The notes beneath the pieces are model-generated. The model was not told where the DNA came from, made no database searches, and saw nothing but the letters and a program-made list of their open reading frames with translations. From Eledone cirrhosa (taxonomy: Eukaryota), in NCBI GenBank assembly GCA_964016885.1, contig OZ024740.1, forward strand, positions 53,754,001 through 53,818,000: a DNA stretch of 64,000 nt, given 5' to 3'. This document shows, piece by piece, positions 1,401 to 60,342 of the stretch (within the stretch, counting starts at the first letter, position 1; each line of letters starts with the position of its first letter). A program made the translations under genes and the position numbers.

Positions 1401-1520
1401 AGTAATAATAATAAATTTCAAGACTAAAATCCTCCGGTTGCAACGTTTTTTGAAATATTCACTTCTGCGTAAGGGTGAAAGCAGCGATTCTTTGCTTAAA
1501 CTTTAATTTGTTATTTTAAT
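1401..1520. mobile_element. Family A pLTR two-arm remnant
   Basis: Antisense tail-end arm TAGTAATAATAATAAATTTCAAGACTAAAATCC joined to a sense arm ending CTTTAATTTGTTATTTTAA-(TA)n; both arms match 58640-58860. Confidence 0.75.
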
Positions 1521-1539
1521 ATATATATATATATATATA

Positions 1540-1656
1540 ACGAAGGAAATGTGGTAAGGAACCAGGTGGACCATAACGGACCAAAGTACTCAATACTTAG
1601 GGTAGTAGAGTGGGTAATAGGAACCAGTAAGACCCTTGGGGTCTTACTGGTTTCTC
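1540..1656 (-). mobile_element. Family B pLTR fold-back remnant
   Basis: Reverse complement of 2838-2933, plus a short inverted arm (GAACCAGTAAGACCC ttg GGGTCTTACTGGTTT); flanked by (TA)n. Confidence 0.8.
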
Positions 1657-2745
1657 TCTATATATATAAATGAAAATATAGAAATATATATATATATATA
1701 TATATATATATATATATTAAAATAACAGATTAAAGTCCTCCTTCTTTGTCGTCGTCCTTTTCATTTTCTCGCCCACCCGAGGCAGCCCCTCGGTCCTTTG
1801 TAGCCTCAGTACCTCCACCCCATCCCCTATTCTATGATAGAATTGGCCGACTCCGCTTTTTATAGCAGTTGTGACAGACCCCAGATACTTGCTTTCTTAT
1901 CCGATGGCTGCTCCATTTCCGTGCTTTCTACATTTCTTAGTGGTTTCTCTGCTTTAATTTCTCGTATATCAGTATTTATTTTTGGGGTGGGGTGGGGTGG
2001 GGTATTCTGAATTAATTTTCCGTATCAAATTTTTCATATACCTAGTACGAGCATTTATGTAGTTTGCACTAGAATTTTTGTATCGTAGCGGCACCCTTAG
2101 AGATAGTATTAGTAGTATTCATTTTCGGGATTCTGAATTATTATTTCGTATTAGTTTATGTTTTGCACTGGGTGGTTGCTGGCCTTGTGCCTAGGGTAGA
2201 AACATTTATTTCGAATTAGTTTCGGGACTCTGAATTATTATTTCGTGATAGTTTCTTTAGTATTTTGGCCCCTACTTGTTGACCTGTCACCGTAAGATAT
2301 ACTCGGTTGATTAGTACTAACTCTTAAAATGGTCTCATTACAATTCCGTCCCACCTAGTAAACTTTTCTATAGTTTAGCAGTACCAATGAGAGACTTGAT
2401 GATTGTCGTTAGGGAATAGTAACCAGAAATTGTTTTTTTTTTTTTTTTGTATTTATAACTTTCTTGGTATTCTTCTATATATTTACTCCATATTGATTTA
2501 CTTATTGTTTCGACCTCCTCCCCCTCCCCCTCCCTAGTATACTTACTTGTCCTCCTGCCCTGCTGTAGTTGGCACTATCAACGCACGACTGCGTTTCCTC
2601 CACTCCCTCTCTCTCTCCCTCTTTCTTCTACTGGCAGGTTCAGCTACCCCTTCCTTCCACAAATTGCCATGATAGAATTATGTGTCTCAACAACAAACTT
2701 TTGACCAATCCTTGTGACAATCACTTTTACCATATATGGAATTAC

Positions 2746-2842
2746 ACCCCTGAGAAGCTCGGCTATTCATATACCAGGATAAAATTTTTTTCATTTAGTT
2801 CAGAATTAGCCGTCGAAACGGCTTGAGCTCAGCCGTCGGGGT
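2746..2842 (+). ncRNA. Type I hammerhead motif (family B), core partly degenerate
   Basis: ACCC-CTGAGAA-..CGGCTA[long loop]TAGCCGTC-GAAA-CGGCT(TGAGCTC)AGCCG-TC-GGGGT; GUC triplet with a 6-bp stem III, but G8 is missing in this copy. Confidence 0.6.
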
Positions 2843-3188
2843 CCTACTCGTTCCTATTACCCACTCTACTACCCTAAGTATTGAGTACTTTGGTGCGTTA
2901 TGGTCCACCTGGTTCCTTACCACATTTCGTTCGTTTTATATATATATATATATATATATATATATATATATATATATATATATATATATATATATATGTA
3001 CATATATACACATATATATCAAAATTAATATAAAAATGGCTTCTACAGGACTAGAACTATTCATTCGAACGAAATCCTCACACACACACACATATATATA
3101 TATATATATATCCAGGGAGTTTAAGGTGAAGTTACCGTAGGTGAGAACTCGATGTTTAGTTTCACGTCAGTGTCATTACTACAACAGA

Positions 3189-3273
3189 GGTCCGATGAGC
3201 TTTTGATTCCAGAGTCGGGCCAGATTGACATGGATCGAACCGTGAGCTGATCAATAGTGAAACGCGCGTCACC
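3189..3273 (+). ncRNA. Type I hammerhead ribozyme, U4C core variant
   Basis: GGT-CCGATGA-GCT.TTGAT[insert]ATCAA.AGT-GAAA-CGCGCG-TC-ACC: stem I GGT/ACC, palindromic stem III ACGCGCGT, GUC triplet. Confidence 0.7.
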
Positions 3274-3307
3274 AACCAATAAACGTCTTTATATATATAT
3301 ATATATA

Positions 3308-57079: not shown

Positions 57080-57530
57080 TCACCTAATGACCTCAAATTA
57101 AGACCTACAATAGCAGGTTCCACTTGCAAAACCCACCGCCTCAGCAACTTCCTGGATACTCTATTGAAACCATTCCTTGAAAGCCACATAAGGGGTTTAT
57201 GCTAACCTAGTCATGGGGTACCACCCTCTACCGTAATATACTAGAAAATGCAGAAACTATTACCTGCTTATAGAAAATAACCGGAAGAAATATCTAGATG
57301 ATTGTTTCATCCTTTAGCATGACAGTAGAGAGAGACTTAAAGAATGTAATGCACTTCTAAATGGATTTAACACAAACATTCAATTTACGATGGAATACAG
57401 CCATCAACAACTTCCTTTCCTCGAAATCCTTATTAATATAACTAACAAGAAAATAGAAACAGACATACACTATAAGTCCACGGACTCCAAGCAATATCTT
57501 CCGTTCAACTCATGCCATCCGAGACACACT
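57080..57530 (+). pseudogene. Internally deleted Penelope-like reverse transcriptase
   Basis: LKLRPTIAGSTCKTHRLSNFLDTLLKPFL, YANLVMGY, KYLDDCFIL*, IQFTME..LPFLEI..TDIHYKSTDSKQYLPFNSCHPRHT. Confidence 0.88.
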
Positions 57531-58428
57531 AATATGTATATATATATGTATATACATGTATATACATGTATATATATGTATATGTGAGAATTGTGTATAT
57601 ACATATGCGTGTATATCCATACAATTTGATTGCACTTATGTATAGTGATTATCCCAATGATTCCTGACAGATAGACATATAATTAACAGCCATAAATACA
57701 TAACAGGTAATCTTATAAAACTTATATAAAAAATGTTGTTTAATAACATAAAATGTGTATAACATAAAATTTCCTTTAATATCTTAACAATTATAACATT
57801 TTTAAGATTGCTATATCTTAAATTAAATTAAAGAATCCTTTATGCTTTGTGTGTATATATTATATACGTAGTTAGCTATGTTATGTATTTTATAAGTGTG
57901 TATATATATTTATATGTATTTTTACGTGTGTATACGTGTTATATGATATGTAGTTCTCTAGCAATATATGGATTTCTTAATGTATAGATCCCAATTTTTA
58001 ATATATTGATCTCAATTTTTAAATGATTAACTAAACATCTAATCATATTTAAACAATGATTAATTTCCCATATTATATATGTATATTCCATTCATGATTA
58101 TTAACATTTCTAATTTTATTTATTCATTTCATATCAATTGTTAAGTTAACTCAACAAGATATGACTTAGAGTTTTCGTTCTCTCCCCTTCTCTTTGTCTC
58201 CTCTCTCTCTATATCATTCTCTCTCTGTTGTTTTGGTCTCTCTCTCTCTCTCTTTTTTCTCTCTCTCTTTTTCTCTCTCTCCTTCTTTTTCTTTCTCTGT
58301 AACTCAACGAAAATATCCAATACTAATAATAATATAAGTAAACAACTCCACTATCCGGGAGCTTCCAACAGTAATGGTTGCATGTTTAAGGGTATGTCAA
58401 TATTTATTTATAAAACTGATCTATATTA

Positions 58429-58493
58429 TATTTTGTCTGATGAAAGCACACCATAATTTAACTTGGTGTCCTTGAAATATGTATAATGAAATA
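58429..58493 (+). ncRNA. Type I hammerhead ribozyme (family F)
   Basis: TATTTTGT-CTGATGA-AAGCACACCA..TGGTGTCCTT-GAAA-TATGT-ATA-ATGAAATA. Confidence 0.8.
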
Positions 58494-58552
58494 AATATGG
58501 TTTTATAAATATAGTTTCCATTTGTTAATATCGTATATATATATATATATAT

Positions 58553-58860
58553 ATTTATTAAAATAGCAGATTATCATCGTTTTTTCCCGTTCTTTGCCAG
58601 GGAACGTTTCCACGAACCAAAGTATCGTCTTCCTGTCTTCCTCCGGTTGCAACGTTTTTTGAAATATTCGCTTCTGAGTTCACAGATTGACTTTTTTAGT
58701 TTCAGAAGATCCCGTTAAGGGTGAAAGCAGCGATTCTTTGCTTAAACTTTAATCTGTTATTTTAATAAATATTTGCCCTACAGTTCTTATATATTTGATA
58801 TATATTTATCCTTATCCAGTCCTCTTTGGATTTTAGTCTTCAAATTTATTATTATTACTA
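58553..58860 (+). mobile_element. Family A pLTR with short inverted arm and full tail
   Basis: ATTTATTAAAATAGCAGATTA is an inverted arm; the body is the reverse complement of 36405-36600. Confidence 0.85.
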
Positions 58861-59247
58861 TATATATATATTCCGATGATTTGATCAGAGAGGCACGCAG
58901 TAATTAAGGTCGAGTGACACAATTTCGAGTGATCAGCAGCCTTTAGACTCACTTGATCAATCAACAATTGTTAATACTATAAATAAAACCCTTTTTGTAC
59001 AGCCGACCATGTTATTCTTCACACTTTCACTATATATATATATATATATATATATATATATATATATATATATATATATATATATATATATATATATATG
59101 TGTGTGTGTGTGTGTTAGAGGTTATATTTAATCTGTTGGGATACAACGAGCAAAATATTTTTATAACTGATATAAACCACTCAACAAATTATTGGAGTAA
59201 GTATACAATATATTAACAAATGGAAACTATATTTATAAAACCATATT

Positions 59248-59410
59248 TATTTCATTATATATATTTCAAGGGCCACCAGAGAAAACAATGGTGCGCTCTC
59301 ATCAGATAAAATATAATATTTATTTATAAAACTAACCTATATTATATTTTATCTGATGAAAGAGCACCATAGTTTGCTCTGGTGGCCCTTGAAATATGTA
59401 TAATGAAATA
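59248..59410. ncRNA. Back-to-back family F hammerheads (59248-59313 minus, 59345-59410 plus) in fold-back 59116-59452
   Basis: Both show TATTTTAT-CTGATGA-..GCACCA..TGGTGGCCCTT-GAAA-TAT(A/G)T-ATA-ATGAAATA. Confidence 0.8.
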
Positions 59411-60342
59411 AATATGGTTTTATAAATATAGTTTCCATTTGTTAATATATTGTATATATATATAAATATATAAATATATATATATATATATATATATATA
59501 TATATATATATATATATATATATATATATATATATATATATATATATATAAATATATATATATATATATATATATATATATTTGTATATATATATTTATA
59601 TATATATATATATATATACATATATATATATATATATATATATATATATATAGAGAGAGAGAGAGAGAGTGAGAGAGAGAGATTGGTATATTGGTATATG
59701 TGTGTGTGTATATGTCTGAAACTATCTGTGTGTTTTGTATATATATATATATATACCGTTCCTGATAATCTCATTTGAAGAAACCGTTCTTGTTTTGTAG
59801 ATGTCCCTTCCATATATAATAAAATACCTATACTCTACCAACGTATTGAGAATATTTTAAAACTATAATTACCCCAGATACCACTTGGGAACATATATAT
59901 GCACAATTATTAATCTATATAAATATTTATACACTTATAACCTATTGTAATATAATAAGATAAAATAAACTTACAACAATAATTCTTCATATAATCTAAT
60001 TGATTCTATATACAATATTATAACTCATATTATAGCTAAATAAATTTAAATTCTGGAATCATATTCCACCATTTCACCAAATTGTTAATTCCTTTTAAAT
60101 TAAATACAAGCTCGTCTTTCTTTTTTCTTCTTCCTACATACATATATCCTAATTATTTAAATTCTGCATAGCGTCAAAAATAAGTTTTTTTTTAGCCCTA
60201 TACCTCAACCTCATTTGCATACTCAACTTAATAATTTGAAATATCTTACTTTTCTTCTCTTACCCCTTCACTATCCAGGGAAAAACTTTAACAGTTAAGG
60301 TATCTTTCCTTGGTTATGTCAAAATTTATAAAACAAACTTTG

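Follow-up and report, generated by a model that had tools for sequence, protein, structure and literature searches.

The stretch of DNA analysed here, which we call the window (64 kb of Eledone cirrhosa, contig OZ024740.1, C1:53754001-53818000, within a 3.0-Gb genome), carries about 22 two-armed insertions of fold-back families that are, almost beyond doubt, Penelope-like elements (PLEs) and one non-coding tandem derivative. They lie head to head between TA runs, and as a rule one arm ends at one fixed internal position of its family and the other arm at a second one. The window is AT-rich and dense in microsatellites, with 215 TA runs, and its comparison with itself reveals numerous short inverted pairs flanked by such runs. 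A reading of the letters alone (the original prediction) had already described some 20 two-armed loci between (TA)n with both 3' ends pointing outward. Both points are borne out: 13 pairs come from our arm caller and 9 were added by eye, and the arms' 3' ends must point outward because the direction of the open reading frames (ORFs) fixes the orientation. The families of that prediction are indeed real insertions; what it missed is their Penelope-like nature and the fact that the layout is a published one. Its interpretation is supported in part. We name its internal site T1 and its "tail end" T2.

Two fixed termini

Termini were mapped in a sample of 1.254 Mb that takes in the window and 119 10-kb stretches, selected by coordinate and not at random. 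The reference sequences of families E, F and G belong to this sample; the other five (A, B, C, D and H) lie outside it. The TA runs that serve as targets vary in length. Arms of the eight families reach the terminal region 269 times and 242 of them then meet a TA run, 111 at T1, 114 at T2 and 17 elsewhere. On-site means within 10-14 nt of T1 or T2, two zones that by our estimate take up roughly one quarter to one third of the interval scored, and 225 of the 242 arms are on-site. The terminus motifs given for six families also proved correct across the full locus set. Family C ends GTCTTTC/ATAT in 28 of 38 ended copies, family D ends TATAACA/ATAT in 34 of 43, family A uses two registers 4 nt apart (31/64 and 13/64), and B, F and H end where they were said to end, with subfamily variants.

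The distance from T1 to T2 is 88 nt in A, 80 in B, 116 in C, 60 in D, 92 in F and 66 in H. Although T2 is indeed a fixed end, it is not the end of the transcript. In five families (A, B, C, D and H) tandem copies do not stop there but run on into the 5' untranslated region (UTR) and the ORF, and because they read through it T2 must be internal.

The bases that follow the termini within the element continue the phase of the TA run. At the 11 sites with known read-through (T2 of E and F being left out) the match is 4, 3, 3, 3, 2, 3, 4, 4, 5, 4 and 5 nt long, while 2.5-10% of neighbouring positions match equally well (Fisher combined p ~9e-7). In 64 of 92 pairs the T1 arm joins its TA run with at least 2 nt identical to the read-through of the sister arm. 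In family A the end shifts from one TA-phase tract to its neighbour, with a step of 4 nt at T1 and of 3 nt at T2, which is what annealing would predict. The claim of a constant site just before a TA holds at all 11 sites; in one F subfamily the read-through after CATTG is AATAT, and exact UA homology is therefore lacking there. The further claim, that UA microhomology lets both broken ends prime, is consistent with the 2-5 nt of TA phase found at each site. However, homology cannot be what fixes the sites, because the same ~300 nt contain 4-18 TA-phase tracts of at least 3 nt (used sites counted in) and most of them stay unused. A shared tail hairpin is likewise unsupported, since the tails fold better than their shuffles in 2 of 7 cases only, C (z -4.4) and H (z -2.2).

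One terminus of each kind

The sample yields 62 pairs, 60 of them within one family. Both ends are on-site in 54, and 50 of these combine T1 with T2 (binomial p 4e-11). The same combination is found in 42 of 45 pairs when the window is excluded and in 116 of 126 across the full locus set, which holds 143 same-family head-to-head pairs. If two RNAs chose freely, about half of the pairs would be homotypic (T1/T1 or T2/T2), against 7% seen, which suggests that the two primings are coupled.

These counts also bear on a purely DNA-level origin, in which a PLE end already resident in (TA)n would break and be repaired by hairpin formation or inverted duplication, with no second priming. Such repair predicts identical termini, and the termini differ in 50 of 54 pairs, which refutes it as a general mechanism. 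It would account for the homotypic exceptions (10 of the 126 pairs, and an 823-bp, 98.3% palindrome at 41052-41874), and this minority may have arisen in that way. As an explanation of the loci at large we consider it very improbable.

The T2 arm extends at least 15 nt past T1 in 43 of 50 pairs. The original prediction had pointed to such overlap as a difference from L1 twin priming, and it was right to do so. In L1 twin priming two primers come from the two target ends and the 3' ends face outward. Its equivalent here, with one RNA read in a single pass from the tail end and from T1, would have the first cDNA (complementary DNA) halt at T1. The outward geometry is shared, and in 7 of 50 pairs the T2 arm does halt at most 14 nt from T1 or inside the tail. 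For most loci this scheme is refuted by the 43 arms that pass T1. There is, besides, no poly(A) tail, both sites are fixed and internal, and the partner enzymes are a PLE reverse transcriptase (RT) and a GIY-YIG endonuclease, not those of L1. Its chance of being the general answer is, in our opinion, slight indeed.

Neither arm is consistently the longer one. The T1 arm exceeds its partner by more than 20 nt in 14 pairs, the T2 arm in 10, and the two agree within 20 nt in 26 (n=50). Symmetric junctions (at most 20 nt) number 22 of 41, against 17.2 in within-family permutations (p 0.005); this test omits 5 of the 50 junctions, in F and G, whose gaps of 94-133 nt are alignment breaks, as well as 4 C pairs. 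Loci L193-L197 were chosen for having two ORF arms and are not usable as evidence of symmetry. At the 50 junctions themselves the arms overlap by 1-19 nt in 22, meet bluntly in 2, enclose inserts of 1-19 nt in 21 and leave gaps in 5, and several of the inserts are copied from nearby element sequence.

The inner junctions had been described as variable and expected to be dispersed. They are variable, all junction sequences being different, and for that reason a single replicating fold-back master was rejected; they are unevenly spread, with a cluster near the hammerhead motif described below. In family B 25 of 38 arm 5' ends lie at -43 to -61 from T1 and in A 5 of 20 at -64 to -68; the hammerhead core is the stopping point of 6 of 10 ends in family E and of 4 of 10 in family H. 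It is the short arms that stop preferentially there.

Some of this would suit snap-back self-priming, in which a palindrome lets a cDNA or an antisense RNA fold back on itself and serve as template for an inverted arm, as has been proposed for rotifer PLEs (PMC3846280, accessible part). Several junctions are centred on short hammerhead palindromes, near-symmetric junctions are in excess, and source variants are common to both arms. Nevertheless, a T2-primed cDNA could yield only a nested T1 arm, which disagrees with the 14 of 50 pairs whose T1 arm is longer by more than 20 nt, and many junctions show extra templated bases where a hairpin centre would be required. Given both sides, we regard self-priming as unlikely.

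Short palindromic units flanked by TA runs could also be taken for non-autonomous DNA transposons (miniature inverted-repeat transposable elements, MITEs) with terminal inverted repeats that insert at TA. The ends are unequal and the junctions all different, the shortest loci measure 44 bp and the longest exceed 6 kb, and an RT ORF lies within long arms. This refutes the MITE reading, to which we attach practically no probability.

A common source for both arms

In 57 of 75 pairs the two arms of a locus have diverged from each other by less than the cross-locus median (B 18/21, D 8/9, F 10/10, E 4/4, C 9/14, H 2/3, A 6/14). The arms of a B pair share subfamily letters. Three young B pairs have 0, 0 and 1 differences over 2.6-3.1 kb, against ~0.3% across loci, and 3 of 6 long D pairs share 14-17 rare variants; the variant comparison of long pairs covers rows of B, D and A and one row of F. 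This shows that paired arms derive from a common source copy or subfamily, one RNA and two RNAs of one locus being indistinguishable by such data.

The possibility that the fold-backs are chimeras of assembly or amplification has to be weighed as well, because some young pairs are near-perfect 3-kb palindromes and spanning of the window's own junctions is not seen in the listed contigs and reads. However, the arms differ by 3-6% on average and are identical in only 10 of 75 pairs, and chimeras would neither give the two arms different fixed termini nor halt at element ends. Moreover, in contigs from two runs of one sample family C arms meet head to head at dispersed positions other than those of the window. 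This applies to 14 of 15 listed joints (depth 3-54), whose sides are only 21-31 letters long and whose library type is not on record. An artefact of this kind strikes us as scarcely credible.

Presentation of the hypothesis

We think it probable that the head-to-head loci are made by priming from both cut ends of (TA)n. The endonuclease of the element would cut both strands of the run, and each free 3' end would prime the RT at one of the two start sites flanking the tail. The protein, and not homology, would choose T1 and T2 by binding the tail region, while the register would be set by the RNA pairing over 2-5 nt with the end of the TA run, which is self-complementary. Two cDNAs could then be drawn from one transcript, either as the same stretch copied twice by strand displacement or as successive units of a partial tandem, and their 3' ends would be joined via microhomology or short templated patches.

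According to the original prediction, overlapping arms need two RNAs or a multimeric template. Multimeric templates do exist. There is, however, a third option, namely one RNA copied twice with strand displacement. For this the RNA would have to outlast the first round of copying; PLE RTs are not known to have RNase H. We infer that copying one RNA twice accounts no less well for the one-of-each pairing and for the surplus of symmetric junctions. Whether both cDNAs stem from one RNA or from two RNAs of one source is, in our judgement, evenly balanced.

A bolder version, which we offer tentatively and would not yet expect to be correct, makes head-to-head insertion the default PLE reaction, performed by a dimeric RT-endonuclease with one RNA and coordinated ends. 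The dimer would grip one RNA by its tail and cut both strands of (TA)n, with one DNA end led to the pre-tail start site and the other to the post-tail site, and UA pairing over 2-5 nt would put each end in register. The trailing polymerase would displace the leading cDNA, so that a stretch of RNA would be copied twice and the arms would often stop at the same place. If this is true, a second first-strand synthesis replaces second-strand synthesis, and a single scheme covers the inverted pseudo-long terminal repeat (pseudo-LTR), the presence of the tail on one side and the preference for (TA)n.

Several points weigh against priming from both cut ends. A clean 2-nt match is missing at 28 of 92 junctions, the apparent homology could come from a fixed start that merely lies inside a TA-phase tract, and family E and one F subfamily fit poorly; the accessible part of PMC11167929, furthermore, states that there is no homology between the RNA start site and the cut DNA. 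Apart from the homotypic pairs mentioned above, only 124 of the 269 terminal arms receive a partner from the caller, about half being left unpaired; by eye, many of these have a partner of 10-32 nt ending at the other terminus, and others are single or ambiguous. Arm lengths in long pairs show no significant correlation (Spearman 0.36, p 0.22, n 13). In family A the within-locus divergence is not lower (6 lower, 2 equal, 6 higher). The window junctions at 14408 and 55629 are not bridged by any of the contigs and reads listed, a gap which proves nothing. Finally, the case for these families is built entirely from sequence.

The families as Penelope-like elements

Judged by their sequences, A, B, D, F and H are 3' ends (pseudo-LTRs) of PLEs carrying RT and GIY-YIG ORFs. 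The window itself contains a 5'-truncated family A element on the minus strand (36404..38403), made of the RT C-terminus with a GIY-YIG frame of 329 aa (37417-38403), the 3' UTR and the pseudo-LTR to T1. This frame continues into family A sequence and has 122 scored genome matches at 95-100% identity, many within 713-aa frames. The PLE plan is visible in 20 long copies of family A; in locus L057 the order is (TA)n, inverted arm to T2, 1.7-kb partial tandem, 88-nt tail, ORF, 3' UTR to T1 and (TA)n. RT and GIY-YIG frames also sit upstream of B, H, F and D, the distance downstream of related ORFs being ~1.1 kb for B, 0.2 kb for H and 1.1-1.5 kb for F.

Open frames of 709-750 aa with the motifs DKT, YRDD and Y[IV]G are present in A, B, H and F. 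In the copy of family D that was read the ORF is split; it retains YVDD, and its match to RVT_1 (E 0.0012) is weak and below the cut-off. A Pfam scan of the A, B, H and F ORFs gave no relevant match, and a PDB sequence search with family D returned only two weak RT matches (E 0.035 and 0.11). Among 477 homologues, one that is 41% identical matches GIY-YIG at E 1e-5. Partial tandems or pseudo-LTRs occur for A in L051, L054, L057, L066 and L067, for B in L191 (tandem unit of 3531 bp), for H in L199 and L200, and for D in L241; the D unit is 4038 bp long and has YVDD and a CX4CxxC linker. The D ORF of L241 contains long Asn/Thr-rich inserts in its N-terminal part, resembling rotifer PLEs as described in the accessible part of PMC3846280. 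L191 and L192 (C1:437.20 Mb and C2:51.28 Mb) are tandem arrays of 3-4 full-length B units with intact 784-aa frames, which makes them candidates for recent activity.

Families A and B have all of the Hydra-clade motifs (DKT, a CxCX5C linker, no CCHH, CxxC and CxH flanking the conserved E and N), with RWR replacing RWK. Family H has DKT, RWR and CxCX5C in a frame whose reading stops before CxH, and family F has DKT and CxH, its linker and CxxC being degenerate in the copy read. At most one Cys lies between GIY and YIG in A, B and H. By these motifs A, B, H and partly F would belong to the Hydra clade. Family D, which combines a CX2-5CxxC linker with two Cys between GIY and YIG, looks Neptune-like, with Nematis as the alternative. 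Family C is a 531-bp non-coding tandem, with three or more units in L050. No stop-free stretch of at least 90 aa is listed over its window copies, and no linked PLE ORF was found for it. It is likely a PLE-derived non-coding tandem of the non-LTR retrozyme type, with a type I hammerhead motif in each unit.

A strict scan places a type I hammerhead motif on the sense strand of the A (with a U4-to-A core), C, D and F references. It finds no such motif in antisense, and in 300 shuffles the score was never reached. The predicted cut lies upstream of T1 by 25 nt in A, 57 in C, 154 in D and 50 in F. The window copy of family E is also positive. The scan misses the references of B, E, G and H, of which B and H have degenerate or minimal motifs by eye. 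Among the best 150 of 256 Rfam matches to the window there are only below-threshold microsatellite and hairpin matches and no hammerhead, and focused Rfam scans of the B and D regions gave no hammerhead either.

Relation to published systems

The loci add new members, present in very large numbers, to PLE clades already described, and their layout is known too. The inverted copy, the one-end tail, the (TA)n bias and the two internal RT starts are all published PLE traits. What we contribute is of a quantitative kind, namely the one-of-each rule, the homology in TA phase at T1 and at T2, arms of the same source and the junction hot spot. The comparisons that follow are confined to the accessible parts of the papers cited.

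Hydra-clade PLEs (Craig et al. 2021, PMC8557442) have an inverted 5'-truncated copy, a tail of 30-40 bp that is often at one end only and a (TA)n bias, and the paper names the origin of tandem and inverted forms and the microsatellite bias as open. Our families share with them the C-terminal GIY-YIG, DKT, the CxCX5C linker, the lack of CCHH, CxxC and CxH near the endonuclease end, hammerhead-type motifs and partial tandems. They differ in having RWR and not RWK, units of 2.6-3.5 kb and tails of 66-92 nt. Their copy number is very high, whereas the paper has few families outside cnidarians; each protein query gives 28,000-87,000 first-look genome candidates, which are not copy numbers.

The closest biochemistry is that of Poseidon PAc from the green anole (Frangieh et al. 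2024, PMC11167929), a predicted dimer that cuts and extends both strands at AT-rich targets from two internal start sites flanking the tail. Its hammerhead is unneeded for insertion, and here too arms cross the predicted cut. It is of another clade, however; its start site is reported to have no RNA-DNA homology, as against 2-5 nt of TA phase after both sites here, and its two start sites are not tied to the two arms of one insertion.

Penelope of the rotifer Adineta vaga (PMC3846280) likewise has head-to-head inverted pseudo-LTRs of which one bears the tail, with palindromes and microhomology where the two meet, and, as in family D, N-rich ORF inserts. The authors favoured antisense self-priming; copies are few there, with no counts of terminus pairing. 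Non-LTR retrozymes (PMC7229834; bioRxiv 10.64898/2026.07.22.740005) resemble family C in being non-coding tandems with a type I hammerhead per unit. The C monomer is 531 bp, against 150-450 bp reported, and C inserts as T1/T2 fold-backs; the word "inverted" is absent from PMC7229834. Within the literature covered, which includes few subscription papers, we found no one-of-each count and no UA-priming model for PLEs.

Implications of the hypothesis

As the layout is known, a PLE specialist will recognise it at once. The one-of-each rule and the UA homology make an open PLE question directly testable in vitro, the latter being in conflict with the only published biochemistry (PMC11167929, accessible part). 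The genome offers intact young ORFs (A of 713 aa, B with 784-aa frames) together with base-exact start sites. Extrapolation from the 50-60 pairs in our coordinate-picked 1.254 Mb suggests ~1e5 two-armed events in 3.0 Gb. Such loci can be mis-annotated as MITEs, microRNA hairpins or assembly errors.

Loci of the window

The caller's 13 window pairs comprise 8 same-family T1/T2 pairs, 3 with one end off-site, one T2/T2 pair of family G and one cross-family pair. In 7 of the pairs added by eye the partner arm is too short or too diverged for BLAST; they are marked so below. The other two additions, at 4166-4415 (fold-back "I", with the two-terminus pattern) and 40639-40997, are of unassigned families.

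Family A pairs lie at 1402..1518 (reversed T2 arm 1402-1432, sense arm 1430-1518 to T1 in the -4 register), at 4431..4612 (reversed T2 and sense T1 arms overlapping by 40 nt) and, by eye, at 58555..58858, where a reversed T1 stub of 15 nt meets a sense T2 arm with a hammerhead-like motif (CAGAAGA core ~58703). Family B is represented at 15574..15742 by a reversed T1 arm with a sense T2 arm. By eye it adds 1540..1658 (reversed T2 arm 1540-1635 and a 23-nt sense stub near T1), 56812..56970 (reversed T1 stub of 30 nt and sense T2 arm) and, with uncertainty, 13955..14067, a T1 arm whose 52-nt reversed partner is probably a diverged tail. A flank of 127 bp is inverted-duplicated (99%) at 15129-15255 and 15777-15903, bracketing the TA run with the B pair at 15574-15742.

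The two C pairs are longer. At 3308..4027 a reversed T2 arm that is longer than a single 531-bp monomer (3308-3951) faces a sense T1 arm (3953-4027), and at 14139..14954 a reversed T2 arm (14147-14408) faces a sense arm that runs through the monomer junction to T1 (14407-14954). The latter contains a type I hammerhead motif on the plus strand (14820..14902, core 14825) whose predicted cut is 57-58 nt upstream of T1. Family D has a reversed T2 arm with a sense T1 arm of 23 nt at 4056..4143, a minimal pair by eye at 7760..7803 (reversed T2 stub of 11-16 nt, sense T1 arm), and at 54952..55817 a reversed T1 arm of 678 nt with a hammerhead (core 55139, minus) joined to a sense T2 arm (55629-55817).

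Sense T1 arms characterise the three F pairs: 4879..5188 has a reversed T2 partner by eye, 8196..8505 a reversed arm that is off-site (+11) with a hammerhead core in each arm, and 59117..59452 a reversed tail arm (off-site, +107) with cores at 59305 (minus) and 59353 (plus). Reversed T2 arms are common to the H pairs, joined to a sense arm that is off-site (-16) at 16682..16946, to a sense T1 arm with the junction at the hammerhead core at 40101..40310 and, by eye, to a short sense T1 stub at 46169..46249. The family G fold-back, 41052..41874, has the T2 position on both arms and is the exception to one-of-each noted above.

Head-to-head junctions between families are 2 of the 62 sample pairs and are seen at 1718-2936, L135, L028 and L055. 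In the first (1718..2936) a reversed A T1 stub (1718-1736) adjoins 1.2 kb of sense B 3' UTR to T2 that matches locus L165. They represent nested insertions or, alternatively, occasional pairing in trans. Other fold-backs, whose families are rare or unassigned, lie at 29625-30032 and 42001-42244, as well as at 40639-40997, which has the same end on both arms.

Other repeats

A dispersed repeat of ~190 bp, its copies 85-93% alike, is found at 9023-9179, 10769-10959, 19709-19895, 28494-28687, 47618-47787 and 54234-54426 and also nested in the family F reference L119; it is probably a SINE (short interspersed element). An RT fragment of the LINE (long interspersed element) type occupies 62286-64000 (minus) in three successive frames, and we take it by its motifs to be RTE-like. 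Another PLE lineage (YLDD) has left a broken RT fragment at 56990-57535 (+) that ends in a TA run and has 64 genome matches of 79-90%. A partial-tandem repeat at 18265-19248 and 13087-13179 (374 bp, 90%) also ends in a TA run and has a PLE-like layout. A 43-bp minisatellite at 27970-28317 consists of 8 copies of a 24-nt unit with variable (TA)n, and a 252-bp repeat is present at 44876-46125 in three near-identical copies (98%), with a short TA run at the start of each.

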